Numbered from the stretch's first letter, positions 3,542 through 49,990 are shown. The stretch is DNA of 58,544 nt from Candidatus Aenigmatarchaeota archaeon (GCA_043818155.1 JBDRGB010000011.1:1-58544), one strand, 5' to 3'. Notes: generated by a model from the letters alone, not told the origin. Made by a program: numbers and translations.

Positions 3542-4543
3542 TCAATGAAGCAACCTATTGTCTACAGGCATCTTCAAACTATGTTTACGTAACGCGGTTT
3601 CTACAGAAGGCACAGTTCTTCCAAGCTGTTTAGAAATCCAATGATAGTTCCTGTGGCGGTTTTTCGCAAGAAATTCCAACTCACTTTCACTCCAATTTAT
3701 TTTGTAAACCTTGTAGGACTTCAAATACTGGAATAGCTTTTCTTGTTTCCTTCCTATGGAAAATCCTATCTTTTCATAAAACAGTTCCAAGTTCCGCCTG
3801 CCAGTTATATTTAGAGTATGAACAGGCTTAACCAAGAAAATCCTACCTCCGATTTCATGGTTTCCAGCCGGCCTTGTGTATACACGGCCGGTTTGTATGC
3901 CTAAAATTTTTAACAACCCTCGGACAAGCTCGATTAGCTTCTTATCGGAATTGTAAAAACGTATGCATCTATTTGACACGTTTCCTTCGGAATCGTACAT
4001 GCCTTTCAAGAACGAGGCTATCTTAGAGTCGTTCATATGATTTAGTCGTTCAGAATCAAAATACTTCAAAGCTCTGACGGATGCTACAGAACTCTGTGTT
4101 ACCCTCCAGCGGTCTCCATATTTCCATATCCTACAGTATATACCACTCCACTCTTTCAAGAGCTTGTAAAACACTTTTGCGAAGTCCTCGTCTACGACGG
4201 ACAAATAAATACAGGCCCCACCATCCTTACGAAATGAAATACAACCATCACCCCTTATAACACCTAAAATATAGCAAAAGTTCTCGTCTATTTTCCTAGA
4301 CAGTTCGATGTATTTTTGATTTTTCAGTTCGCGCAATCTGCTTTTCGCAAGTTCAAGATTTTTCAATATACAGATTCTGGATTTTTCAGAAAAGCGTTTT
4401 GGTTTTCTGCCATAGTACAGCCAACTTTTCATCGTCGGCATTTTTACATACGTGATTTCTGAAATAGTTTTAAGTTGGACACCAGCTTTCCTCAACGAGA
4501 CAACATTTTCGTAATCATTTAGATTGTAGGCTTTCATATACAA
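3542..4543 (-). CDS. free-standing double-motif LAGLIDADG homing endonuclease-like protein with HTH-like extensions
   Basis: Two LAGLIDADG-type motifs with acidic residues retained (YILGVIRGDGCI, FLKGMYDSEGNV). It has N- and C-terminal helix-turn-helix-like extensions. The gene is markedly AT-rich relative to its flanks. Confidence 0.8.
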   Translation of the reverse strand: MYMKAYNLNDYENVVSLRKAGVQLKTISEITYVKMPTMKSWLYYGRKPKRFSEKSRICILKNLELAKSRLRELKNQKYIELSRKIDENFCYILGVIRGDGCISFRKDGGACIYLSVVDEDFAKVFYKLLKEWSGIYCRIWKYGDRWRVTQSSVASVRALKYFDSERLNHMNDSKIASFLKGMYDSEGNVSNRCIRFYNSDKKLIELVRGLLKILGIQTGRVYTRPAGNHEIGGRIFLVKPVHTLNITGRRNLELFYEKIGFSIGRKQEKLFQYLKSYKVYKINWSESELEFLAKNRHRNYHWISKQLGRTVPSVETALRKHSLKMPVDNRLLH

Positions 4544-4652
4544 TCTTAAAAGTAGTAAATCCCCTAACTAAGGAATAGGCAAGCAGGTTTCCGCTGAGTT
4601 CCGATAAGCTTTTAGCGGTAGCAGAAAAGTAAGTATTAATCGGTGTCGAAAT

Positions 4653-5936
4653 ATGGGGCTTTTGGAAAAAATAACGGATGTCCTAAAAGGCGAGTACGTG
4701 TGCGACTCGTGCCTAGGGCGACAATGCGCGGAACTGCTCAGCGGATTCTCGAATACAGAACGCGGCAGAATTCTGCGTGTCTATACCGCAATGCTTGTAG
4801 ACGCCGGTGAGAATCTGGATGTTGGCGCGTCGAATCTTTACGGATTCAAATTCAGAAATACTAAGTTCCATGCTGTGAAACCAAACAAATGCAAGATATG
4901 TAAAAATTTTTTTAGCGAGCGAGTGGAAGAACTGGCGAAAGCCATAGCGAAAAAGACGGCGGGCTACGAGTTCAAGACTTTCCTGATAGGCACAGTGGTC
5001 TCGGCGGAGATGGCGAAGGCCGAGGAGGACGCGTGGCACAGCACCGGCGTCGAGTTCGTCGAGCCGATTAAAAATGAAATCAACCGCGAGGTCGGAAAGG
5101 CTTTTGAAAAAATCACTCACATGAAGTTCGACCTGAAGGAGCCGGACATAGTTGCGATTATAGACCTCGGCCAGGACAAAATCTCGTTACAGGTGAAGAG
5201 CATCTACGTCTACGGCCGCTACCAGAAGCTCGTGCGAGGGATTCCGCAGACGAAGTGGCTGTGCCGCGAGTGCAAAGGCAAGGGATGCCCGCGGTGCAAG
5301 GGAAAGGGAAAGATGTACGAGACGTCGGTGCATGAGAACATCGAGCCCCCTCTGCTGAAGGCCGCAAAGGCCAAGGCGTCGAAGATGCACGGCTCCGGCC
5401 GCGAGGACATAGACGTGCGCTGCCTTGGATGGAGGCCGTTCATACTCGAGCTCGTGCGGCCGATGGTGCGCAACTTGGATTTGAGGAAGCTGCAGGCGCA
5501 GGTGAACAAGTCGAGGAAGGTGAAGGTGCGGGGACTGAAGATCGCGGGCAAGAGGGACGTCGAGGACGTGAAGTCGTCGCGTCACGACAAGACCTATATG
5601 GCCGAGGTTGTTTTCGAGAAGAAGATAGACGTGTCGAAACTGAAGCTTGTGAAGGCGCTCGCGGGCAAGGGCGTAGACCAGCGCACGCCGAGGCGCGTAG
5701 CGCACAGGCGCGCCGACCTCGTGAGGAGGCGCGGGCTGAAAAGGATTAGCGTGCGCAGGCTCGGGCCGAGGAAGCTGGAAATGAAGCTCACGGGCGAGGC
5801 TGGCATCTACGTGAAGGAGTTGATAACGGGCGACGAAGGCCGCACTTCGCCAAGCGTGGCGGAGCTGCTCGGCAATAAGGTTAAAAGCATAAAGCTTGAT
5901 GTAATTAAGATACACGTCAAAAGGGGCAAAATATAA
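4653..5936 (+). CDS. pus10: tRNA pseudouridine synthase Pus10
   Basis: N-terminal Cys clusters (CDSC...CKIC), a second cluster CRECKGKGCPRCKGKG, and the catalytic region SGREDIDVRCLGWRPF and YVKELITGDEGRTSPS typical of the archaeal Pus10 family. Confidence 0.85.
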   Translation: MGLLEKITDVLKGEYVCDSCLGRQCAELLSGFSNTERGRILRVYTAMLVDAGENLDVGASNLYGFKFRNTKFHAVKPNKCKICKNFFSERVEELAKAIAKKTAGYEFKTFLIGTVVSAEMAKAEEDAWHSTGVEFVEPIKNEINREVGKAFEKITHMKFDLKEPDIVAIIDLGQDKISLQVKSIYVYGRYQKLVRGIPQTKWLCRECKGKGCPRCKGKGKMYETSVHENIEPPLLKAAKAKASKMHGSGREDIDVRCLGWRPFILELVRPMVRNLDLRKLQAQVNKSRKVKVRGLKIAGKRDVEDVKSSRHDKTYMAEVVFEKKIDVSKLKLVKALAGKGVDQRTPRRVAHRRADLVRRRGLKRISVRRLGPRKLEMKLTGEAGIYVKELITGDEGRTSPSVAELLGNKVKSIKLDVIKIHVKRGKI

Positions 5937-5988
5937 AAACAGCCGAACATAGAATCAAAAGAAGAAACTAATCTGACGGGTGGTCTTT

Positions 5989-6273
5989 ATGGTCAGGAAG
6001 TCTAGGGGATTCCGCTCAGGGACGCGCAAGAAGCTCAGGCAGCGCCCGGACACGCGGCCGGCGATAACAAAGTTCCTACAGGAGTTCAAGGAAGGCGAAC
6101 GGGTGGTGCTGATGCCAGAACCGTCGAGCCACAGGGGGATGCCGCCATTGCGTTACAAGGGCGCGGCCGGCATAATAACCGGCAGGCGCGGCAGCGGATA
6201 CTTTGTCGAGATAAACGACGGCAAGATGAAGAAGACCTTCATCGCGCGTCCGGAGCACCTCAAACGGGCCTGA
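5989..6273 (+). CDS. rpl21e: 50S ribosomal protein L21e (eL21)
   Basis: MVRKSRGFRSGTRKKL... is a typical eL21 N-terminus. The track ORF begins at GTG 5980; ATG 5989 gives the canonical start. Confidence 0.85.
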   Translation: MVRKSRGFRSGTRKKLRQRPDTRPAITKFLQEFKEGERVVLMPEPSSHRGMPPLRYKGAAGIITGRRGSGYFVEINDGKMKKTFIARPEHLKRA

Positions 6274-8881: not shown

Positions 8882-8955
8882 GCCCTCGTAGTTCAACCTG
8901 GATAGAATGCCAGCTTGCGGAGCTGTTGATCTGGGTTCAAATCCCGGCGGGGGCA
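8882..8955 (+). tRNA. tRNA-Arg (anticodon GCG)
   Basis: Hand-folded cloverleaf: acceptor GCCCTCG/CGGGGGC, D arm GTTC..GAAT, anticodon loop TTGCGGA, T arm CTGGG-TTCAAAT-CCCGG, discriminator A. No encoded CCA. Confidence 0.85.
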
Positions 8956-8962
8956 CTCTTGG

Positions 8963-9036
8963 GCCTCCATAGTTTAGCTTGGATAGAATGATGGCTTCCG
9001 GAGCCGTGGACCAGGGTTCAAATCCCTGTGGAGGCA
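8963..9036 (+). tRNA. tRNA-Arg (anticodon CCG)
   Basis: Acceptor GCCTCCA/TGGAGGC, anticodon stem ATGGC/GCCGT with loop TTCCGGA, T arm CAGGG-TTCAAAT-CCCTG, discriminator A. It lies 7 nt after the first tRNA-Arg. No encoded CCA. Confidence 0.85.
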
Positions 9037-9037
9037 C

Positions 9038-19115: not shown

Positions 19116-20576
19116 ATGCGCGATACTAAGGCCTTCAGGAATATGACTCTGCTTGCGGCCGCCGCGATAGCCGCGGTCATGTGCCTTTCTGCGGTTGCGC
19201 AGTCCTCCGCCGCCGCGGATGACGTCTCGGTGTACGTATCGCCTCCGGAGATATCCATAAACAACACCGAAATAGGATTCGTGGACCTGATTATTTCGAA
19301 CAACCGGAATTTTGCGGACACGCTCTCGCTCTCGGTGTGGCCGTCCACGACGTGGGCCGGCATAACCCCGAACCTCGACAGCTACAACGTGAAGGTCGAC
19401 GCGAATTCCAACGTGACGGTCAAACTTTACTTCTCGGTGGCCGCGGACGCGGATATGACCATAACCAACTTCCTCGTGACAGCCAAGTCCGTGCTGTTCG
19501 AGAATGTCAGCTCGTCGAAGAGCGTGAACGTGCGGACGCTGAGGAAGACGTCCGTGTACATATCGGACGTGTTCGTGGACAGGTACGTCTTGAACCCCAC
19601 AGAGTGCATGAACATAAGGACGGACGTGACGAACCTAGGCCTGACCACGGAATCGTACAAGCTGTCTACTATTATAACGAAGGAGGCCGGTACTGTGCAC
19701 AGGTTTGACGACGACCTGCTCATAGTGGAAGGCAAGTCAATCGGCTCTGCAGCGCATTCTTACTGCGTGGGCAAGCATATGCAGTGGGGCAAGTACACTC
19801 TGTCCACGACGCTGAAGACCACGCTCAACAGACTCGTAGACACGCGGTCCGTGAACTTCGAAATCACGGAAAAGTCCGACCTGATATATGAAAAATCCGT
19901 GGCGTACACCCCGTTCGCGCAGATAAAGACGATAACCGTCAAGAACGATGGCAACCGCGTCGAGAGGGACTTTTACGTGACCGAGACGGTGTCCGACTTC
20001 GTGTCCAAGCTCTTCTACCCGGTCACCACCCCGACGAGCACCGAGACTGCAGACGGCAAGATGGTGTACAGCTGGAAGATAGGACAGCTGAACCCGGGTG
20101 ACGAGACGTCGGTGACGTATGAGATACGCTTCGTTAGCATATGGTTCAGCGGCCTGGTCATAGCGCTCGTGGTGTTCCTCGCGTTCACGTACGTCTACAC
20201 TCCGCGCATAGGCAAGGGCTACACCATGATGGGTCCGCTGAAGCGCGGGAAGGAGATACACGTGCTGCTGGAACTGAAGAACGCGACGCTGTACGAGATA
20301 AGGAACATAGTTGTCAGGGACTCGATACCGCCGCTGGCGTCGCTCGTCGATAAGTTCGACACCATGCGGCCCGAAACCAAAAAGTCGGAGGCAGGGACAG
20401 ACCTCTTGTGGAGAATCAAGTCGCTAAAGCCGTTCGAAGAGCGCGTGCTCACGTACAGGATAAAGACAAACGTGGACGTCATAGGCAGCATAAGGCTGCC
20501 CAGGACCGTCATGGAGTACATCAACCAGAAGAAGCAGGTCAGGATAGTTTCCTCGAAGGCAGTGGAGCTGAAGTAA
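19116..20576 (+). CDS. putative cell-surface/envelope protein with beta-sandwich (CARDB/DUF11-like) repeats
   Basis: N-terminal signal peptide (LLAAAAIAAVMCLSAVAQSSAAAD), repeated beta-rich segments, one internal TM helix (WFSGLVIALVVFLAFTYVY), and a C-terminal DUF11-like module (NATLYEIRNIVVRDSIP...LLWRIKSLKPFEERVLTYRIKT). Confidence 0.55.
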   Translation: MRDTKAFRNMTLLAAAAIAAVMCLSAVAQSSAAADDVSVYVSPPEISINNTEIGFVDLIISNNRNFADTLSLSVWPSTTWAGITPNLDSYNVKVDANSNVTVKLYFSVAADADMTITNFLVTAKSVLFENVSSSKSVNVRTLRKTSVYISDVFVDRYVLNPTECMNIRTDVTNLGLTTESYKLSTIITKEAGTVHRFDDDLLIVEGKSIGSAAHSYCVGKHMQWGKYTLSTTLKTTLNRLVDTRSVNFEITEKSDLIYEKSVAYTPFAQIKTITVKNDGNRVERDFYVTETVSDFVSKLFYPVTTPTSTETADGKMVYSWKIGQLNPGDETSVTYEIRFVSIWFSGLVIALVVFLAFTYVYTPRIGKGYTMMGPLKRGKEIHVLLELKNATLYEIRNIVVRDSIPPLASLVDKFDTMRPETKKSEAGTDLLWRIKSLKPFEERVLTYRIKTNVDVIGSIRLPRTVMEYINQKKQVRIVSSKAVELK

Positions 20577-21623: not shown

Positions 21624-21741
21624 GGTTGGCGGTCAAAGCAAGCAGGAAACATCTGTTCCCATTCCGAACACAGCAATTAAGATGCTTTGCGATATGGCGT
21701 GTACTGAGCATCTGCTCGGGAAACCCAGGACGCTGCCAACC
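21624..21741 (+). rRNA. rrf: 5S ribosomal RNA
   Basis: Terminal helix GGTTGGC/GCCAACC. Conserved CCCATTCCGAACACAG-CAATTAAG, GTACTG and GGGAAAC elements. About 118 nt. An AT-rich promoter-like tract lies upstream. Confidence 0.85.
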
Positions 21742-22008: not shown

Positions 22009-22081
22009 GCCTCGATGGTGTAGTGGCCTAGCATACAAGCCTGTCACGCTTGTGACGCGGGTTCAAATCCCGCTCGAGGCG
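22009..22081 (+). tRNA. tRNA-Asp (anticodon GUC)
   Basis: Acceptor GCCTCGA/TCGAGGC, anticodon stem CAAGC/GCTTG with loop CTGTCAC, T arm GCGGG-TTCAAAT-CCCGC, discriminator G. No encoded CCA. Confidence 0.9.
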
Positions 22082-22137
22082 CAGTTGTTGGCGGAGAAAG
22101 TAGAAAACAGGCGCGTGGGGAACGCGCGGGCGATCAT

Positions 22138-36693: not shown

Positions 36694-36842
36694 TGGGCTC
36701 AATGGGATTCGAACCCATTTGTGGCTCGCATACGCATTCCTGCGCACGCGCGTGACCACTGGTTTTTACGCCCGATGCGCTTTCGTCCCACGCTCAGCGG
36801 CCTTATAAGACCAGCGCTCTAACCAAACTGAGCTATGAGCCC
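36694..36842 (-). tRNA. tRNA-Ile (anticodon UAU) with two intervening sequences (about 39 nt at 37/38 and about 35 nt between variable loop and T stem)
   Basis: The reverse complement reads GGGCTCA TA GCTC AGTTTGGTTA GAGC G CTGGT CTTATA [39 nt] A ACCAG TGGTC [35-nt hairpin ACGCGCGTGCGCAGGAATGCGTATGCGAGCCACAA] ATGGG TTCGAAT CCCAT TGAGCCC A. The exons sum to a normal 75-nt cloverleaf. No encoded CCA. Confidence 0.75.
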
Positions 36843-40136: not shown

Positions 40137-40580
40137 ATGAGTATAAAAAGAGACAAATGGGATTACGACAGGGAATTAGGGAAAAGGATGGGAGAAGCCC
40201 CAGATGAAATAATTTGGCATATAAATAAAAAATATCAACGAGTTGAAACCGACAGAGAATATAAGCAAAGAATCGGTGAAAGAAACATAGGATTAATGAA
40301 TGGGGTTCTTTTAGGACTATTATTAGGATTGGCTATTTCTCTAATTTTAGATGCGATACCAAGACTATTTAGCATAACATCTAATCCTGTTGTGGAATTG
40401 ATTTTAGCTACTGCTTTGATAGTTGTCTTTAGTAAATTCTTCGAGCTTATAACGAAGCAAGAGTTTGAATTTACTTCAGAAAGAGGATTTCAAATTTTGT
40501 TGATTATTATCGCAATTATGACAATCGCAGTTTTGTTTGGATATTATTTTGCCATACACATCGGTGTAATTATAATTTAA
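40137..40580 (+). CDS. hypothetical integral membrane protein (147 aa) in an AT-rich island
   Basis: Charged N-terminal 60 aa followed by three hydrophobic helices (LMNGVLLGLLLGLAISLIL, VVELILATALIVVFSKFF, ILLIIIAIMTIAVLFGYYFAIHIGVIII). 28 % G+C in line 40201-40260. Confidence 0.5.
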   Translation: MSIKRDKWDYDRELGKRMGEAPDEIIWHINKKYQRVETDREYKQRIGERNIGLMNGVLLGLLLGLAISLILDAIPRLFSITSNPVVELILATALIVVFSKFFELITKQEFEFTSERGFQILLIIIAIMTIAVLFGYYFAIHIGVIII

Positions 40581-42402: not shown

Positions 42403-42578
42403 GCGAAGCCGAGTTTTGACGGTTTCTTTGTCATTCCTTTTCCTTGGTTACAGGCAGCGCTTGGCGCGGTTTCCGGCTTTCCAGTCGCATGGAACCTTTA
42501 TCTGCCTCGTTTTGAAAATTTATTATAGCGGAAAGCGAAGAATTATACAGGCCGTAGCGTCGGCTGCCCGGTGAACGG

Positions 42579-43058
42579 ATGCCGCAAGAAGAGGACGAAT
42601 TCGAACTTATTCCTGTATCCCCGCTCCGCAGGCTGGAGAAGCGCCTCGAGCGCATGGAGGGCTCGGCCAAGTCGGGCATGGACACCGGCAAGTTCTTCAG
42701 CGAGCTCGTGGAGATCGTGCGCATGAACCAGGAGCTCGTGGACGAGCTGGCCAAGGCGAACGACGCGCTGCGCATAGAGATATCCAAGCTGCCCGGGAGG
42801 CTGGACGACCTTATAACGAGCGTGAACGAGCTCGTGGCCTTCATAAAGGCTTCGGCGGGCGCCGATGCCATTGCTGGCCCGGGAGGCATGCCGGGCGCGG
42901 GCATGGAGCCGCTGCTGAAGAAGATGGACGAGCTCATCGACGCGAACAAGAAGATAGTGGAAAGCAACGAGGCGGTGATGGGCGCGGTCGATCAACTGAG
43001 CACCAAGTTCAAGCGGCCGCTGATGCCGCTCAGGCCGCCGCTTCGAAGGATGCAGTAG
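42579..43058 (+). CDS. hypothetical coiled-coil protein, first gene of the pilus-like operon
   Basis: Heptad-rich helical sequence interrupted by a Gly/Pro/Met linker (AGPGGMPGAGMEP), with no TM segment. GGTGA lies before the ATG and a TATA-like AAATTTATTATAG about 60 nt upstream. Confidence 0.45.
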   Translation: MPQEEDEFELIPVSPLRRLEKRLERMEGSAKSGMDTGKFFSELVEIVRMNQELVDELAKANDALRIEISKLPGRLDDLITSVNELVAFIKASAGADAIAGPGGMPGAGMEPLLKKMDELIDANKKIVESNEAVMGAVDQLSTKFKRPLMPLRPPLRRMQ

Positions 43059-43111
43059 CCTCGCGCGCGAAGCTTCGCAAGTTCTAAATTAATATAAAAC
43101 CAATTAGAATT

Positions 43112-43795
43112 ATGCCGGGCACGAGCGCGAAGGCCGTATCCGAGATAATCTCGATGGTGCTCATAGTCATGATAGGAATGTCGCTCGTCGGCACCGCCTA
43201 CATGTGGGGCATGCCTATGATAACGAAGCGGCAGGACTCCGCGACTTCGGACAGGGCGTACAGCTACTTCAACCGCGACAACTCCAACTCGCTCGCGCGC
43301 AAGCTCGAGTCGGTGGCGAAGAACGGCGGCCAGGAGACGTTCGTGGCGGACGTGGACGGGACGTGGAGCGTGCACGAACACTCGCTTTCAGGCGAGGAGA
43401 ACAACTCGCTCGAGTTCGAGACCTTCAGCAAGGTGTCGAACATAGCAGTGTCCACGGCCACGAACGGCATAGGATGGGTCGCGCTGACCCCGGGCGGCAG
43501 CTGCCCTCCGCGGAAGGGCCTGGTCGGCTTCGACCCGTCGTACGTGGTCTGCGCCAAGGCCGTGCAGCTCGGCGAAGGGTTCAGGATCGTCTACAGGATA
43601 TGGTTCAGGGAGCTCTACAATACGGCCGGCACCAAGGGCTACAAGGTCAGCCTGCTGAAGCACGAGTCCGGCCAGCTGTCGGGCACGGGGCGCACGGTCC
43701 GCGTGTACAACAGCCGCGTCTACCCGTGCTCGCCTCCGGATCCACAATGCAGCAAAACGTTAATTATCACCGAAGTCAAAGTTCTTCTAGTATGA
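43112..43795 (+). CDS. archaeal type IV pilin-like protein (class III signal peptide, Pilin_N/DUF1628-like N-terminus)
   Basis: MPGTSAKA/VSEIISMVLIVMIGMSLVGTAYMW: a short basic leader, K-A at -2/-1, then a hydrophobic helix. The beta-rich remainder has Cys pairs. Confidence 0.65.
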   Translation: MPGTSAKAVSEIISMVLIVMIGMSLVGTAYMWGMPMITKRQDSATSDRAYSYFNRDNSNSLARKLESVAKNGGQETFVADVDGTWSVHEHSLSGEENNSLEFETFSKVSNIAVSTATNGIGWVALTPGGSCPPRKGLVGFDPSYVVCAKAVQLGEGFRIVYRIWFRELYNTAGTKGYKVSLLKHESGQLSGTGRTVRVYNSRVYPCSPPDPQCSKTLIITEVKVLLV

Positions 43796-44268
43796 GCGTT
43801 CCCGAATCGCGGCTGCGACGCGGCATCGGCTTCGGCCTCGGCAGGTCCGGCCAGTCCCAGATAATGCAGTTCATACTGTTCTTCCTCGTAGGCATGACGC
43901 TGTTCACAGCTGTCGGCAACTTCTTCAGGCTGCAGTCCGAGGCGCTCCAGGTCGAGATATCGAACAGCTCGTTCGAGCTGATAGGGAACTACTTCGCGTC
44001 CGCGGCCGTGGCCTCGGTGGACGGATGCAAGCAGTGCGGGAGCGTGGAGAACACGATGCGCATAAGCGACAGCGTGTTCGGCTACTACCTCCAGATATCG
44101 CTCGGGCCGGGCGGCCTGGCTGTTGCAACCGCGCCGCCCACCGCATCCTTCAGAACATCCGTGAACAACCTCAACGCCAGCGTCTCCTTCATGGAGGGCT
44201 CGGCGCCGTCCATACAACCAATAAATTTAACATACGGCAGAAACCAAAATAGATTAGAGATAAGATGA
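43792..44268 (+). CDS. archaeal type IV pilin-like protein (class III signal peptide)
   Basis: MSVPESRLRRGIGFGLGRSG/QSQIMQFILFFLVGMTLFTAV. The ATG overlaps the upstream stop (ATGA at 43792-43795). It corresponds only to the 3' part of track ORF 43204..44268. Confidence 0.6.
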   Translation: MSVPESRLRRGIGFGLGRSGQSQIMQFILFFLVGMTLFTAVGNFFRLQSEALQVEISNSSFELIGNYFASAAVASVDGCKQCGSVENTMRISDSVFGYYLQISLGPGGLAVATAPPTASFRTSVNNLNASVSFMEGSAPSIQPINLTYGRNQNRLEIR

Positions 44269-46043
44269 TAGGCAAAAGGATTTTCCGGGACCTGGTGAGG
44301 GGGTACCGGATGCTGAACAGCGGCCGCATCGCGGAATCAATGCCAGCAGCCGCGCTCCAGCCACAACCGCAGCCGCAGCCCGGCCAGCAGCCGCAGATGG
44401 TGGCGCAGCCAGCGCCCCAGCCGCGGCCACGCGGGACGTCGGTGAGGATGAGCGAGCTGAAGGAAGTGGAGGAGGGCGTGGACATACCCGAGTTCGTCTA
44501 CTCGAAGGTGCGGCTGGGCGAGATGAAGCCGGAGGAGGCGAAGGTCGCGCCGATAGTGTACCCGCTGATACCGGCGAAGCCGCGCAAGGGCGAGCCGGTG
44601 TTCGCGTACGCGAAGATAGCGTGGGACAACAGGGCGCACAAGTACGTGTACACGCTCGTGGAGCCCGAGCTGCCGGAAAAGCTGAAGCAGATACTCGCGC
44701 GCATCAAGGACCTGCTCGAGCAGAGGCTGGACGTCGACTTCTCGAAGCTGAAGCGCTTCGAGGCGATAGAATACATATCGAAGCAGACGAACGAGCTGAT
44801 AGAGTACTTCGACTTCCGCGTAAACGACTACGAGAAGAAGGTGCTGCGCTACTACATAGACCGCGACTTCATGGGCCTCGGCAGGATAGAGCCGCTCATG
44901 AAGGACGACAACATAGAGGACATAAGCTGCGACGGCGTCGGCATACCGATATTCATCTTCCACCGCAACCCGAGGCTCGGGTCCACGATCACGAACGTGG
45001 AGTACGGGAACGCGGAGGAGCTCGACTCGTTCATCACGCGGCTCGCGCAGCTGTGCGGCAAGAGCCTTAGCGTGGCCGAGCCGCTCGTGGACGGCGGCCT
45101 TCCTGACGGGAGCCGCCTGCAGGCAACGCTCGCCACGGACATCGCGCGCCGCGGGAGCAACTTCACCATACGCAAGTTCACGAAGGAGCCGCTCACGCCC
45201 ATACACCTTCTAATCAACGGCACGCTCGACGTGCGTTCGCTCGCATACCTGTGGTTCACGGTCGACTACGGCTCGAGCATGCTGGTGTGCGGCGGGACCG
45301 CGTCCGGCAAGACCACGCTGCTGAACGTGCTATCGCTCTTCATACGCCCGGATAAGAAGATAGTCTCGATAGAGGACACGGCCGAGCTGCAGCTGCCTCA
45401 TCCGCACTGGATACCGACCGTCGCGCGCACGTCCGTCTCGGCCGTGGGCTCGAAGGAGCGCGGGGAGGTCGACATGTTCGACCTGCTGAAGGAGAGCTTC
45501 CGCCAGCGGCCGGACTATATCATCGTCGGCGAGGTCCGTGGACAGGAGGCGTACATACTCTTCCAGCAGATGGCGACCGGGCACCCGTCGCTCGCCACAA
45601 TACACGCGGAGAATATGCCGAAGCTCATGGACAGGCTGACAACCCCGCCGATATCGCTGCCGCCGGGCCTGATCGGCAGCCTGGACCTGATGGTGTTCAT
45701 GGCGCGCATGAAGTACAGGGACAAGTTCGTGCGACGCGTGACCGAGGTCGTGGAGATGGTCGAGTACGACACCGAGCACGACGAGCCGGTCGTCAACCGC
45801 GTGATGAAGTGGAACTCCGAGAACGACAAGTTCGACACGAGCAAGAGCGTGCTGCTGAAGAAGATAGTATCCCGCACGGGCATGAAGGAGAAGGACATCG
45901 TCGACGAGCTCGAACGCAGGATGGTCATACTCAACTGGCTGAAGGAGCACAACGTGCTGAACTACCAGGACGTGAACAAAGTGATCAACATGTACTACAA
46001 TTATCCGCAGCGCACGATATCCATGATAATGGAGCGCGTGTAG
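44265..46043 (+). CDS. type II/IV secretion-family ATPase (FlaI/PilB/GspE-like pilus assembly ATPase)
   Basis: Walker A CGGTASGKTTLLN, the IVSIEDTAELQL Asp-box region, Walker B PDYIIVGEVRGQEA and His box ATGHPSLATIHA. The ATG overlaps the upstream stop (ATGA at 44265-44268). Confidence 0.88.
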   Translation: MIGKRIFRDLVRGYRMLNSGRIAESMPAAALQPQPQPQPGQQPQMVAQPAPQPRPRGTSVRMSELKEVEEGVDIPEFVYSKVRLGEMKPEEAKVAPIVYPLIPAKPRKGEPVFAYAKIAWDNRAHKYVYTLVEPELPEKLKQILARIKDLLEQRLDVDFSKLKRFEAIEYISKQTNELIEYFDFRVNDYEKKVLRYYIDRDFMGLGRIEPLMKDDNIEDISCDGVGIPIFIFHRNPRLGSTITNVEYGNAEELDSFITRLAQLCGKSLSVAEPLVDGGLPDGSRLQATLATDIARRGSNFTIRKFTKEPLTPIHLLINGTLDVRSLAYLWFTVDYGSSMLVCGGTASGKTTLLNVLSLFIRPDKKIVSIEDTAELQLPHPHWIPTVARTSVSAVGSKERGEVDMFDLLKESFRQRPDYIIVGEVRGQEAYILFQQMATGHPSLATIHAENMPKLMDRLTTPPISLPPGLIGSLDLMVFMARMKYRDKFVRRVTEVVEMVEYDTEHDEPVVNRVMKWNSENDKFDTSKSVLLKKIVSRTGMKEKDIVDELERRMVILNWLKEHNVLNYQDVNKVINMYYNYPQRTISMIMERV

Positions 46044-46121
46044 AACGCGTCGTGGGTCGTGCAGGATGCAGCGTACAGATGCGCGCGCGGCGCGGGTTTT
46101 GCAGGCCGGGACGGTGCGAGA

Positions 46122-46997
46122 ATGGGGTTTTACAGCAAGATTTCGTTCAGGTACTTCAGCCAGTTCAGCGAGAGCATAGCCGACTACTTCGGCGAGGTGA
46201 AGGCGAACCTCAGGCGCGCGAAGATGGGTCTGTCCGTGCAGGAGTACATAAGCATAGCGGTGATGTCGTGCTTCTTGGTGTTCATAGCGCTGTTCCCGGT
46301 GCTGTCGTTCCTGTTCGGGTTCGTGTTCAAGACGTTCCTTTTCAGCTTCATGAGCTCCTTCACGGTGTCGCTCGGCCTGGCCGTGTGGTCGTTCCTTTTC
46401 ATAATGAACTACCCGAGCATAGTCATAGCCGAGAAGACGAGGAAGATAGACAACATACTCGCGTTCGCGCTGCTGTACCTGTCGACCGCAGCCAGCTCGA
46501 AGCTCCCGCTGCACAAGGCGTTCGGCATCTTCGCCAAGTTCAGCGAGTACGGCGAGCTGACGAACGAGGTGAAGGCGATAAACAACGACGTCGAGGTCTT
46601 CGGTCTGGACATCAACACCGCGCTCGAGCGCGCGATAGACCGCTCTCCGTCCAAGGCGTTCAAGGAGACGCTGTGGGGGCTGCTGTCGACGATGCGCTCG
46701 GGCGGGGACGTGGCCGCGTACCTGCGCGAGACCGCGGCGAACAACATGGCCGAGTACAGGCGCAAGCTGTACGAGTTCTCGCACCAGCTGACGATATACA
46801 TAGAGATATACCTCACGACCATAGTGCTGGGCGCGATATTCTTCACGATACTGACGTCCATCATAAGCGGCATCAGCCAGAGCGCGGACACGTCGAACAT
46901 CATAATGCTGCAGTTCTTCCTGATATTCGTCTTCATGCCGCTGGTGTCGGCGCTCTTCATAATAATGATCAAGTCGATAACGCCCGGGGAGGAATGA
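46122..46997 (+). CDS. FlaJ/TadB/TadC-like platform membrane protein, single T2SSF domain (part 1)
   Basis: TM helices flank a cytoplasmic T2SSF-type domain (LPLHKAFGIFAKFSEYGELTNEVKAINNDVEVFGLDINTALERAIDRSPSKAFKETLWGLLSTMRSGGDVAAYL). ATG 46122 follows GGTG; the track start is GTG 46059. Confidence 0.75.
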   Translation: MGFYSKISFRYFSQFSESIADYFGEVKANLRRAKMGLSVQEYISIAVMSCFLVFIALFPVLSFLFGFVFKTFLFSFMSSFTVSLGLAVWSFLFIMNYPSIVIAEKTRKIDNILAFALLYLSTAASSKLPLHKAFGIFAKFSEYGELTNEVKAINNDVEVFGLDINTALERAIDRSPSKAFKETLWGLLSTMRSGGDVAAYLRETAANNMAEYRRKLYEFSHQLTIYIEIYLTTIVLGAIFFTILTSIISGISQSADTSNIIMLQFFLIFVFMPLVSALFIIMIKSITPGEE

Positions 46998-47012
46998 GGG
47001 AGGAATGGCATA

Positions 47013-48065
47013 ATGGCGGACATGAAACGACGCAAAGAGGCCGAGACGATGCGCGGGCAGCGGAAGCGCGCCGAGGAGCAGGAACTGACCAGGCGCTCCA
47101 CGATGAAGACGCTGCTCAGGCTGGTGAGGCTGGAGGACGTGCCCGAGGAGGGCAAGGTGCTCGCGATAACTGTAATCACGTCGATGGTGCTGCTCACGCT
47201 CGCGTCATTCGCGCGCAACTTCGGAGTGATGGCGAACGCCATACTGATTTCGACGTTCATAATAGCCGTGCCCCAGTTCCTGATGATGTACGACCGCTAC
47301 CGGGGGATCAAGGAGATGGAGGAGAAGTTCCCGATGTTCCTGCGCGACGTGATCGAGACGCTGCGCTCGGGCATGCCGCTGCACACCGCCATCATATCGG
47401 CTTCCAGCTTCGACTACGGCAAGCTCACGCCCGAGGTGAAGAAGATGGCGGACCAGCTCACGTGGGGCATGGCCATGGACAGGGTGCTGAACCAGTTCGC
47501 GGACCGCGTCCGGCCCAGCAAGCGCCTGTTCACCAGCGTGAAGATAATACAGGAGTCGTACCTGTCCGGCGGGGACGTCGCGTCCACGCTCGACGCGGTC
47601 TCGGACAACGCCGCGCTGCTCGATGAGGCGCAGAAGGAGCGCGGCGCGCTGCTGAACCAGTACGTCATACTCATGTACGCCATATCGCTGATATTCATCG
47701 GCATAGTGGTCGCGATCAACAACCTCATGATACCGATATTCAAGATTTCGGCTGCAACGGCCGGCGGTGCGGTTATGGGCATAGGCAACCCGTGCAGCAC
47801 GTGCTACGGGGCGATGTGCATGGTATGCAACCTGTACAAGGGCACGGCCTCGCTGCTGTTCTCCGTGGACCCCGATAGCATAGGCGCCTACTACATATCG
47901 CTATTCTTCTACATGAGCCTGATACAGTCCGCGTTCTCCGGCCTGGTCGCGGGCCAGATAAGCGAGAACTCGGTAAAGGCCGGCATCAAGCACAGCATGA
48001 TAATGGTCGCGATAACTTTCGGCGCGTTCTACTTTTTGATATACATGGGAGTGATCGGCGCGTAG
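47013..48065 (+). CDS. FlaJ/TadB/TadC-like platform membrane protein, single T2SSF domain (part 2)
   Basis: Second T2SSF-type domain (FPMFLRDVIETLRSGMPLHTAIISASSFDYGKLTPEVKKMADQLTWGMAMDRVLNQFADRV...SGGDVASTL) with flanking TM helices. GGAGG lies upstream of the ATG. Confidence 0.75.
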   Translation: MADMKRRKEAETMRGQRKRAEEQELTRRSTMKTLLRLVRLEDVPEEGKVLAITVITSMVLLTLASFARNFGVMANAILISTFIIAVPQFLMMYDRYRGIKEMEEKFPMFLRDVIETLRSGMPLHTAIISASSFDYGKLTPEVKKMADQLTWGMAMDRVLNQFADRVRPSKRLFTSVKIIQESYLSGGDVASTLDAVSDNAALLDEAQKERGALLNQYVILMYAISLIFIGIVVAINNLMIPIFKISAATAGGAVMGIGNPCSTCYGAMCMVCNLYKGTASLLFSVDPDSIGAYYISLFFYMSLIQSAFSGLVAGQISENSVKAGIKHSMIMVAITFGAFYFLIYMGVIGA

Positions 48066-48102
48066 GAAGCGCGGGGTCGGTGCGAACTGAACGGCGGGCG
48101 AT

Positions 48103-48633
48103 GTGAAGATGGCTGGGTCGAGGTGCGTTTGCAGGGGATTGTTCAACGTCGAGTACCTGACAGTGCTGACGCTCTTCATACTCTTCTCAACGTACTTCAC
48201 CTTCCGCATGATGGAGCAGAAGCCGGCGTACATACGCGAGGTCAGGACAGAGATATTCCGCTCCGAGAGCTACAGGCTGAGCGAGATGCTCGTTAATGAC
48301 GCGGGCGCGCCGGCGAACTGGCAGACGCTCGTGGGGACGGCCGACGAGGGCAGCATAAGGCGCATCGGCCTCTCGGACGAGTCGGAGAACGTTACCAACC
48401 TCCTATCAGAGGTGAAGATTGCGAATATGAGCCAGATGTGCGCCGCCGACTATGCAGCCGTGAAGCGGCTCGTGGGCGCGCAGCACGACTTTTCGCTCGT
48501 GCGCATAGGCTTGGACGGCGTGCCGGAGACGATCTGCAGTCCCGGCGCCGTGGGCGACGTGAAGGCGTCGATAACGAGGCTCGTCGCGTTCGGCGGCGAG
48601 GACTACGGGAAGATGGTCGTCCAGATGTGGTGA
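48103..48633 (+). CDS. pilin-like protein with DUF361-type class III signal peptide
   Basis: MKMAGSRCVCRG/LFNVEYLTVLTLFILFSTYF: R-G at -2/-1, then the xxxxEY motif and a hydrophobic helix. Start is GTG 48103 or ATG 48109. Confidence 0.55.
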   Translation: MKMAGSRCVCRGLFNVEYLTVLTLFILFSTYFTFRMMEQKPAYIREVRTEIFRSESYRLSEMLVNDAGAPANWQTLVGTADEGSIRRIGLSDESENVTNLLSEVKIANMSQMCAADYAAVKRLVGAQHDFSLVRIGLDGVPETICSPGAVGDVKASITRLVAFGGEDYGKMVVQMW

Positions 48634-48634
48634 G

Positions 48635-49990
48635 ATGCGCATGCGATCGAAAGCGAAAGGCGTGGTGAACGTGATAGAGCTGATGATCGTCGTAGTGACG
48701 CTGTTCGTGTCGTTCAGCATATTCTTCCCGGGCAACATCTACAGGAACAAGTGGGACGACGCGTACGGCATGCTCAAGGCACGCGACGCAATGCTGGCGC
48801 TAGAACGCTCCGGGCACCTGCACGAGTACGCATTCTCCGGCACGCAGATGGACGGCTTCCTAGAAAGCCTGTTCTCCGGCTCGAACGTCATAGTCTGGCA
48901 CAGCGTGAGCGGCGGCATAAAGGAGGAGACGAGGATAGCGTGCGACTGCCCGGCCGAGACCGTGGCGTGGCTGAACAACTGGGCGGGCAGCACTGTTCTG
49001 AACAACCGCGACGTCGCAATCACGTTCTGCCAGGCCAGCATAAACCCATCGGAACCATGCTTCGCGAACTCGGACGCGCTACTCGTCTGGAAGTACAAGC
49101 CGCTGCAGCCGTACGAGTCAGCGCTCGCGGACTATGTGTCAATGGGAGGAGGCGTGGTCGAGGTGATGAACTTCACGGAGGAGGCGCAGGTGGACGGCGA
49201 CTCGGTGCAGACGGGCATGTTCGGCCTCGATTGGATAGACTTGGTGAAGGACGATGCGAGCACGTGCGAGTTCTCGAGGACGCCCCGCAGCGCTTCGGAC
49301 ATAATCTACGAGCCGTACAAGTACTTCCACCACGTGCCGATAACCATCACTATAGCCGCGTACGGCCAGACGATAGCCGGCTGCAGCTACAACCCGACCG
49401 GCAACGTCACGCTGGTGCTGAAGAGCAACCCGTACGAGTTCGACACGTGCGGCCCAAGCTCGGTGTTGTTCGACACGCACCTCTTCGCGGAGCGCGATAC
49501 GATATTGGTCGGAGGCTCCGACATCATGCTGAACTACGTCAACAGCGTGTCCAGCGTGAGCGTTTCGTTCAAGGCGGGCTATGTGTTCGAGGACTTCCTC
49601 GGTTACATTGCGCCGCCAGGCACGCCCGACCCGCCGGGAAAGGCCATAGGCATAAATAGGATTGTGCACATCGAGCCGGCGGACGGCAACGCCGACCGCG
49701 TGCTGGTCAGGGCCGTGGCCGGACCAACGAAGTACCCGGCGGTGATACTGAACACGTACGGCTCAGGCAGGACCGCGTGGATGCCCGAGCCAGGCAAGAA
49801 CGGCTACGGCCACGACGAGAAGGCGCTGCTCGCGTCGCTTCTGCTGTGGTCGGCCAACAAGGAAACGTCTTCCGTGAGCTCAGCAATGTCCAGCTTCCGC
49901 GCAGGGTACATGGCGTCGTACATCAACGTGAAGAACTACGACATGTTCGAAATATACAAGCTGAACGTCGGGATTGGATATCCGGTGTAG
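48635..49990 (+). CDS. large pilin-like protein (451 aa) with class III signal peptide and a big C-terminal globular region
   Basis: MRMRSKAKG/VVNVIELMIVVVTLFVSFSIFF resembles type IV pilin N-termini (IELMIVV). The remaining roughly 420 aa is Cys-containing and soluble-looking. The start is 2 nt after the upstream stop. Confidence 0.55.
   Translation: MRMRSKAKGVVNVIELMIVVVTLFVSFSIFFPGNIYRNKWDDAYGMLKARDAMLALERSGHLHEYAFSGTQMDGFLESLFSGSNVIVWHSVSGGIKEETRIACDCPAETVAWLNNWAGSTVLNNRDVAITFCQASINPSEPCFANSDALLVWKYKPLQPYESALADYVSMGGGVVEVMNFTEEAQVDGDSVQTGMFGLDWIDLVKDDASTCEFSRTPRSASDIIYEPYKYFHHVPITITIAAYGQTIAGCSYNPTGNVTLVLKSNPYEFDTCGPSSVLFDTHLFAERDTILVGGSDIMLNYVNSVSSVSVSFKAGYVFEDFLGYIAPPGTPDPPGKAIGINRIVHIEPADGNADRVLVRAVAGPTKYPAVILNTYGSGRTAWMPEPGKNGYGHDEKALLASLLLWSANKETSSVSSAMSSFRAGYMASYINVKNYDMFEIYKLNVGIGYPV

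Follow-up and report, generated by a model that had tools for sequence, protein, structure and literature searches.

The window analysed here is a stretch of 58,544 nucleotides (GCA_043818155.1 JBDRGB010000011.1:1-58544) from a metagenome-assembled genome (MAG) of Candidatus Aenigmatarchaeota (DPANN). Eight + strand open reading frames (ORFs), referred to as g1 to g8 and spanning positions 42579-49990 of this 58.5-kb window, are likely to encode the machinery and subunits of a type IV filament other than the archaellum, i.e. a pilus, inherited vertically across Ca. Aenigmatarchaeota. A preliminary description of this DNA, based on its sequence, had guessed that the source was a small-genome symbiotic archaeon, which fits the origin of the MAG, and had listed the same eight + strand ORFs, all of which were recovered at exactly those coordinates. 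The g1, g7 and g8 proteins are identical to ABIA12_01160, ABIA12_01190 and ABIA12_01195 of NCBI, each annotated as "hypothetical protein"; the NCBI start codons of g7 and g8 lie two codons further downstream (giving 174 and 449 amino acids, aa). The genes are as follows, with ↓ marking the predicted cleavage site of each leader:

42579..43058, +: g1, soluble coiled-coil protein of 159 aa with no transmembrane (TM) segment
43112..43795, +: g2, pilin-like protein of 227 aa, leader MPGTSAKA↓VSEIISMVLIV, Pilin_N-like, four Cys
43792..44268, +: g3, pilin-like protein of 158 aa, leader ...GRSG↓QSQIMQFILFF, Gln at +1, three N-glycosylation sequons
44265..46043, +: g4, assembly ATPase of the FlaI/PilB/GspE family, 592 aa, T2SSE domain
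46122..46997, +: g5, platform protein of 291 aa, a single T2SSF domain, counterpart of the N-terminal half of FlaJ/UpsF
47013..48065, +: g6, platform protein of 350 aa, a single T2SSF domain, counterpart of the C-terminal half of FlaJ/UpsF
48103..48633, +: g7, pilin-like protein of 176 aa, leader ...CRG↓LFNVEY
48635..49990, +: g8, class III-signal protein of 451 aa, leader MRMRSKAKG↓VVNVIELMIVV

The g4 protein matches the T2SSE family of Pfam (PF00437, E 3.7e-32) and both of its Walker motifs, A (GGTASGKT) and B (YIIVGE), are intact, consistent with its initial assignment to the FlaI/PilB-type ATPases. Its closest relative among the solved structures of the PDB is afGspE (2OAP; 365 bits, 5e-108), followed by FlaI of S. 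acidocaldarius (277 bits), the Tad ATPase CpaF (159 bits) and VirB11 (~63 bits). Its score on the FlaI equivalog model NF058587 is 405.5 bits, below the 550-bit cut-off, and its PilB3_C match is also sub-threshold (20.8 bits for a cut-off of 27). The protein exceeds both afGspE and FlaI in length by ~80 residues, which are located at the N-terminus. This extension (44265-44610, residues 1-115) is lineage-specific and consists of a conserved basic LVRGYK(I/V)L motif followed by a P/Q-rich low-complexity linker, the length of which varies widely in an N-terminal alignment of the orthologs. N-terminal extensions of the ATPase are considered to mark non-archaellar, accessory-adapted systems (bioRxiv 10.64898/2026.04.22.720090).

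The platform consists of two genes, g5 and g6, in every locus examined. Each of the two proteins contains one T2SSF domain (PF00482) scoring above the Pfam threshold (E 1.8e-15 for g5 and 1.8e-12 for g6), as anticipated in the preliminary description, and five TM-like segments can be distinguished in g5. In NCBIfam, g5 aligns with positions 4-249 of 555 in an ArlJ model and 31-251 of 484 in UpsF, and g6 with positions 192-394 of 465 in an ArlJ model and 264-425 of 484 in UpsF. The two proteins are paralogs of one another (35% identity, E 1e-8) and correspond to matching N- and C-terminal halves, so that a FlaJ/PilC-type platform protein is here divided between two genes.

Four of the remaining proteins (g2, g3, g7 and g8) have N-termini of the class III type. 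When a strict class III rule was applied to all 2302 ORF/start combinations in the window, the only real gene starts retrieved were those of g2 and g8. A relaxed rule, applied to all ORFs in the window from 40 aa upwards, recovered all four candidates named in the preliminary description, together with four other matches that correspond to antisense ORFs or internal starts, and no further genuine gene start. The N-terminal motifs are retained at overall identities of only 30-60%, in comparisons that include orthologs of five other genomes: K[AG]↓VSE(I/V)(I/V)S for g2; [GA]↓QSxIxQF(I/V)LF for g3, with Gln at +1 in all orthologs; KG↓QFNxEF for g7, with a nearly invariant Glu at +5 and with Gln at +1 in four of the six sequences aligned (the window has Leu, and the locus designated L002 has Met); and KG↓V(I/V)NxIEL for g8, in which K8, G9, N12 and E15 are nearly invariant. 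The [KR]-[GA] pair initially described at -2/-1 in all four proteins does not extend to the g3 of the window, which has S-G with R at -3; some of its orthologs have K at -2 and others have no basic residue. Cleavage of the leaders would be expected after Gly/Ala. The mature parts of these proteins contain N-glycosylation sequons and paired cysteines. Pilin_N, DUF7289 and DUF7287 are matched below threshold by g2 and by orthologs of g2 and g7, and no literature was found on either of these two DUF families. DUF361 is not matched in Pfam by any of the candidates or their orthologs.

Related loci were found in Aenigmatarchaeota MAGs and metagenomes (L001-L008 and L010). The eight genes are colinear in L001, L002, L004 and L006, part of the cluster is present in L005, L007, L008 and L010, and the contig of L003 starts at g1. 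Where a related contig extends over the cluster, the genes stand in the same order, at protein identities of 30-70%, and the loci share their flanks: the thermosome gene upstream, and aCPSF1, the proteasome beta gene (psmB) and ProRS downstream. Identity to L001 is 77-82% for the flanking housekeeping genes, 66-69% for g4 and g5 (66% for the ATPase g4), 65% for g1, 56-59% for g2, g3 and g6, 50% for g8 and 46% for g7. Such a gradient is that expected of a machine that is inherited vertically and whose exposed parts evolve fast. The L010 locus, a 5.8-kb contig labelled 'Archaeoglobales archaeon' in NCBI (DRP07_06520, carrying the g8 homolog P0026), has the ATPase, the two T2SSF genes, g7 and g8 arranged as in Aenigmatarchaeota. 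A euryarchaeal range for g8, suggested by the label of P0026, was dropped, given that this short contig carries the same cluster; we would guess that it has possibly been mis-binned.

At the junctions between the genes, which had been described as tight, the ATGA overlaps given at 43792 (g2/g3) and 44265 (g3/g4) are real, as computed from the sequence. The gaps elsewhere, initially given as 2-40 nt, are wider than this for g1-g2 (53 nt) and g4-g5 (78 nt), the others measuring 15 nt (g5-g6), 37 nt (g6-g7) and 1 nt (g7-g8). Two AT-rich elements can be read in the sequence:

42513..42527, +: TATA/BRE-like (B recognition element) sequence AAAATTTATTATAG, ~55 nt upstream of g1
43059-43111 (the g1-g2 gap): TATA-like sequence AAATTAATATAAAA, 20-30 nt before the g2 ATG

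The first lies in surroundings that are otherwise ~60% GC, and a TTTATTA-type motif is seen again upstream of g1 in L001, L002, L003, L004 and L006, making it a candidate promoter for the operon. The second was considered as an internal promoter, which would produce a near-leaderless g2 transcript, and was set aside: the two genes adjoin or overlap each other in L003, L005 and L006, so the element is not conserved. Transcription of the eight genes as a single unit is plausible on this layout.

The subunits differ greatly from one another. The g2 protein and its orthologs show sub-threshold N-terminal similarity to DUF7289, Pilin_N and UpsB. The g3 ortholog encoded at L003:1167-2630 (+) in MAG FW215_bin.29 is a 488-aa fusion, in which the g3 pilin domain is followed by a Ser/Thr-rich linker, a DUF2341 domain (PF10102, E 7e-25) and a C-terminal beta-rich region. 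DUF2341 has been tied to PilY1-like pilus-tip adhesins in archaeal type IV pili (T4P) (Makarova et al., PMC4858521), and this fusion therefore suggests that g3 is exposed on the filament structure. The adhesin-type module was seen on g3 in the L003 lineage only; the locus of the window has no PilY-like adhesin domain. The g7 family comprises 49 clusters of homologs. In g7, Cys113 is invariant and Cys145 nearly so, and the L003 ortholog matches DUF7287 over its full length (E 4e-4). An AlphaFold2 (AF2) model of g7 built on a 37-sequence alignment (pLDDT 90.8) has an N-terminal helix of 50 residues, an alpha-beta loop and a four-stranded sheet, and this predicted structure has the lollipop topology of type IV pilins. 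Matches of the g7 model to ribosomal protein S3 in Foldseek (E>=0.01) were regarded as spurious.

The g8 protein has no Pfam match. Its AF2 model, based on 27 sequences (pLDDT 82, pTM 0.78), comprises a helix at the N-terminus, a stalk that is also helical, and an alpha/beta domain into which a beta-rich segment is inserted, so that the structure prediction called for in the preliminary description yields a pilin lollipop for g7 and, for g8, a helix followed by a domain that Foldseek places in the GATase1/ThuA-like fold class (3rht and 1t0b, probability 1.0, TM-score ~0.45). No invariant or nearly invariant His was found among the 27 homologs, leaving the Cys-His-Glu triad of GATases unsupported, and the likeness of g8 to class I glutamine amidotransferases and ThuA-like proteins is at the level of the fold only. 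An exhaustive profile search extended the g8 family to 414 representatives, many of which share only the first ~235 positions. One distant member, P0300 (359 aa, L009:4055-5134, +), has the N-terminal ~230 positions in common with g8. Candidate roles for g8 are those of a large minor pilin, a tip subunit or an adhesin.

The first gene of the cluster, g1, opens it in every locus covering that end (L001-L007), and few proteins of the locus are conserved as well as its product, in which 26 columns are invariant across an alignment of 40 sequences down to ~50% identity. The N-terminus is acidic (EEEFELIPxSPLRRLEKR), the central helix is invariant (IVRMNQQLVDELAKANDALRIEISKLP), and the tail is basic and rich in Pro. 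Its homologs form 331 clusters, and all those with a named source are from Aenigmarchaeota. The coiled-coil label given to g1 in the preliminary description agrees with weak matches to coiled-coil families and has no firmer basis; individual matches to CesA (1e-4), FlgN, Dynactin p22 and Shugoshin, obtained with PDB profiles and member-by-member Pfam comparisons, were dismissed as coiled-coil noise rather than homology. The statement that the accessory proteins have no recognisable family holds, in that none is known to Pfam. The g1 protein is presumed to be a cytoplasmic accessory or regulatory subunit, and the N-terminal extension of g4 could, speculatively, be its docking site.

Several observations weigh against the interpretation of this locus as a pilus. 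None of the four pilin candidates reaches a curated Pfam or NCBIfam threshold; sequence searches of the PDB returned no match for g2 and nothing meaningful for g3; and, in Foldseek comparisons, the head of g7 had no significant match among the solved structures of the PDB and that of g8 matched no solved pilin. The relaxed scan, down to 40 aa, detected no small stand-alone (major) pilin in the window. Pfam and NCBIfam scans agree with the earlier remark that the cluster contains no prepilin peptidase, and neither the 58.5-kb window nor the regions flanking the related loci (L001-L010) yielded a multi-TM candidate for a class III signal peptidase. Finally, P0300 adjoins eIF-1A, KH and ribosomal protein genes on a 7.9-kb contig (L009) with no T4P genes, and the N-terminal module of g8 therefore exists outside this operon too.

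Alternatively, the locus might produce no long adhesive pilus. In this case, which we judge unlikely, a short pseudopilus or 'functionalised' type IV filament (TFF), resembling a bindosome or a type II secretion system (T2SS), or a machine for DNA or nutrient uptake, would move g8 and other class III-signal proteins, or display them, at the cell surface for scavenging from the host. The four class III proteins are indeed single-copy, dissimilar and rather large, with no small major pilin in the window, and the predicted fold of g8 is enzyme-like (GATase1/ThuA alpha/beta) rather than that of an Ig-like pilin head. Aenigmarchaeota lack nucleotide and amino-acid synthesis, the products of which are presumably supplied by the host (PMC8407114), and a 2026 census proposes the existence of TFF machines functionalised by class III-signal binding proteins. 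However, the bindosome models score far below their thresholds (BasE 182.6 bits for a threshold of 1000, BasF 15.4 for 1300), g8 does not have the fold of a periplasmic binding protein and lacks an invariant His for the GATase triad, the cluster contains no ComEC or other channel, and the fusion of g3 to DUF2341 is indicative of a filament that is exposed and bears adhesins.

A reduced or divergent archaellum, in which the ATPase and platform would rotate a swimming filament and the pilin-like proteins would be unrecognisable archaellins and analogues of FlaF and FlaG, is less probable still. The best NCBIfam matches are to a FlaI model for g4 (3.5e-121) and to ArlJ for g5 and g6, FlaG, FlaI and FlaJ have been reported from most Aenigmarchaeota MAGs (Li et al., 2021; PMC8407114), and archaella and motility occur in at least one member of the DPANN, Nanobdella aerobiophila (PMC11104419). 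Against this, the score of g4 (405 bits) falls short of the FlaI equivalog cut-off (550 bits), g4 resembles FlaI (277 bits) less than it does the non-archaellar afGspE (365 bits), its N-terminal extension contrasts with the minimal ATPases of archaella (bioRxiv 10.64898/2026.04.22.720090), the platform is split, unlike FlaJ, and the archaellin of Nanobdella is recognisable and highly transcribed (PMC11104419). None of the archaellum-specific parts was detected with hidden Markov models (HMMs): no match to Arch_flagellin (PF01917) was obtained at E<=1 for g2, g3, g7, g8 or their orthologs, and FlaH/KaiC-like, FlaF/G, FlaCDE and FlaX proteins were matched neither in the cluster and its orthologs nor among the neighbouring ORFs. 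These Pfam and NCBIfam scans, in which the flanking ORFs were included, bear out the reported absence of archaellin, FlaH, FlaC-G and FlaX from the cluster; no archaellum accessory genes lie beside it, its neighbours being housekeeping genes, and the initial reading of the locus as a pilus rather than a motility apparatus is supported. The idea that the locus is decaying and no longer functional, to which the missing peptidase and the accessory proteins of no known family might lend themselves, is effectively refuted by conservation, because eight intact ORFs, a gene order kept at 30-70% identity and conserved catalytic and signal motifs are evidence of purifying selection.

The pilus that remains the preferred interpretation can be compared with several known type IV filament systems, and type IV filament loci of DPANN with two platform genes and unrecognisable pilins are already present in the literature. 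Two-platform loci of DPANN have been placed under both System 1 and subsystem 4A (Sivabalasarma and Albers, bioRxiv 10.64898/2026.04.22.720090). System 1, or Epd (the EppA-dependent pili of Methanococcus maripaludis), has been reported in DPANN, and both the Epd system and the Tad pilus, which derives from it in bacteria, also have two adjacent single-T2SSF platform genes and several dissimilar pilins with class III signals. Split platforms with a single T2SSF domain each typify the Epd-like/Tad clade (Denise et al., 2019; PMC6668835). A further likeness to the EppA substrates is the Gln at +1 in g3 and most g7 orthologs, together with the Glu at +5 in g7. The gene order differs, being platform, platform, ATPase and second ATPase in Epd and Tad, and ATPase, platform N-terminal half and platform C-terminal half in the window, and the window locus has neither the second ATPase of the TadZ/FlaH/MinD type nor the dedicated peptidase of those systems. 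Unlike Epd loci, the window contains no short headless major pilin. With respect to Tad, g4 scores nearer to afGspE and FlaI (365 and 277 bits) than to CpaF (159), and the halves of the platform match the ArlJ and UpsF models. The fission into g5 and g6 may either be shared with Epd/Tad or have occurred independently.

A further comparison is with the euryarchaeal System 2 (Clade 2) pili, represented by the PilB3/PilB4 loci of Haloferax volcanii, and with A. fulgidus GspE2 (afGspE, 2OAP), the nearest solved ATPase to g4. The extended N-terminus of the ATPase and the weak PilB3_C match are in keeping with this system, as are the similarities of g2 and g7 orthologs to DUF7289, DUF7287 and Pilin_N, all of them sub-threshold and none reaching the gathering threshold. 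Two tadC-like genes are present in Clade 1 and in many Clade 2 loci (Makarova 2016), whereas the System 2 platform of the 2026 census is a single gene and that of the window is two genes; System 2 also has no detectable counterpart of g1 or g8. The TFF loci of subsystem 4A in some DPANN are similarly minimal, with two platforms, an ATPase, one or more pilins, often an adhesin, and accessory genes downstream of the platform. Their link to adhesins is mirrored by the DUF2341/PilY-like domain of the g3 fusion in L003, a domain absent from the window's own locus. The archaellum shares a homologous ATPase and platform and subunits with class III signals, but its platform is a single two-domain FlaJ, in place of g5 and g6 here. 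An island comprising an ATPase, TadC/TadB and "dark-matter" pilins has been described in DPANN (Makarova 2019, PMC6393860), and "FlaG, FlaI, FlaJ and adjacent homologs" in most Aenigmarchaeota MAGs (Li et al., 2021, PMC8407114); the latter very probably correspond to the locus of the window. Among the bacteria, the T4P of Saccharibacteria, candidate phyla radiation (CPR) episymbionts, are conserved in an ultrasmall, obligately symbiotic lineage and have been shown to mediate host binding (PMC9894109, PMC12206443). The analogy is functional only: the machinery of Saccharibacteria is of the bacterial type IVa pilus (T4aP) type, whereas that of Aenigmatarchaeota is deduced here from gene content.

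Other features of the window lie outside the cluster. A 149-nt tRNA, evidently intron-bearing, was found by Rfam at 36694-36842 (-) and missed by ARAGORN, and a tandem pair of tRNA-Arg genes with GCG and CCG anticodons, 6 nt apart, is located at 8882-9037 (+). A stand-alone 5S rRNA gene (21625-21741, +), in a stretch at 20-22 kb with a low GC content (0.48, versus ~0.58 elsewhere), is followed by tRNA-Asp (22009-22082). At 19116-20576 (+), a 486-aa protein with a Sec-type signal peptide, a DUF11 repeat match and a C-terminal TM anchor is a candidate surface protein (S-layer-like or adhesin), unrelated to the class III set. The 147-aa protein encoded at 40137-40580 (+), upstream of the thermosome gene, has three predicted TM segments and no Pfam family, and is outside the conserved cluster in L006. 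A 333-aa ORF at 3542-4543 (-), between genes of the signal recognition particle (SRP) pathway, lies in a low-GC stretch (4001-6000, GC 0.49) that may be foreign or mobile DNA.

The mode of action of the putative pilus can be outlined from homology. The prepilin-like proteins g2, g3, g7 and g8 would enter the membrane via their N-terminal hydrophobic helices and be trimmed after Gly/Ala by a class III signal peptidase encoded elsewhere. The g4 ATPase would dock on the platform formed by g5 and g6, the two halves of what is usually a single FlaJ/PilC-type protein, and ATP hydrolysis would lift the pilins from the membrane into a helical fibre, in which they would be joined by their N-terminal helices. 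The homologies of these proteins imply that class III-signal subunits are assembled on a two-piece platform at the expense of ATP; filament formation itself and the roles of the subunits are proposed by extension. The four pilin-like proteins are most likely minor, priming or tip subunits, because they are single-copy, mutually dissimilar and very different in size. The g8 protein would be a large distal subunit and g3 a subunit able to carry adhesin modules; the major pilin would be g3 or g7, or the product of a small gene elsewhere in the genome. The g1 protein would act as a cytoplasmic coiled-coil accessory factor, probably on the g4 ATPase. The filament is likely to function in adhesion to surfaces or to a host cell.

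A more far-reaching version of this proposal may be put forward tentatively, and we consider it possible but doubtful. In this version, the locus would encode the single essential filament used by Aenigmatarchaeota for host attachment (or for scavenging from hosts), and would unite traits otherwise not found in combination: an archaellum/afGspE-like ATPase, a platform split independently of Epd/Tad, a lineage-specific cytoplasmic coiled-coil regulator, g1, engaging the N-terminal extension of the ATPase, and the GATase1-fold g8 as a new tip or host-recognition subunit.

The description of this locus does not overturn current understanding, and its weight would grow if the split of the platform proved independent of Epd/Tad or if g1 or g8 proved to be new functional modules. 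It provides a data point on how often the FlaJ/PilC platform has been split in the course of evolution, and links three uncharacterised protein families (g1, g7 and g8) to archaeal pili. Aenigmatarchaeota are thought to live attached to hosts, and if this is their only type IV filament machinery, it would offer a molecular handle for studies of how these archaea find and attach to their hosts.

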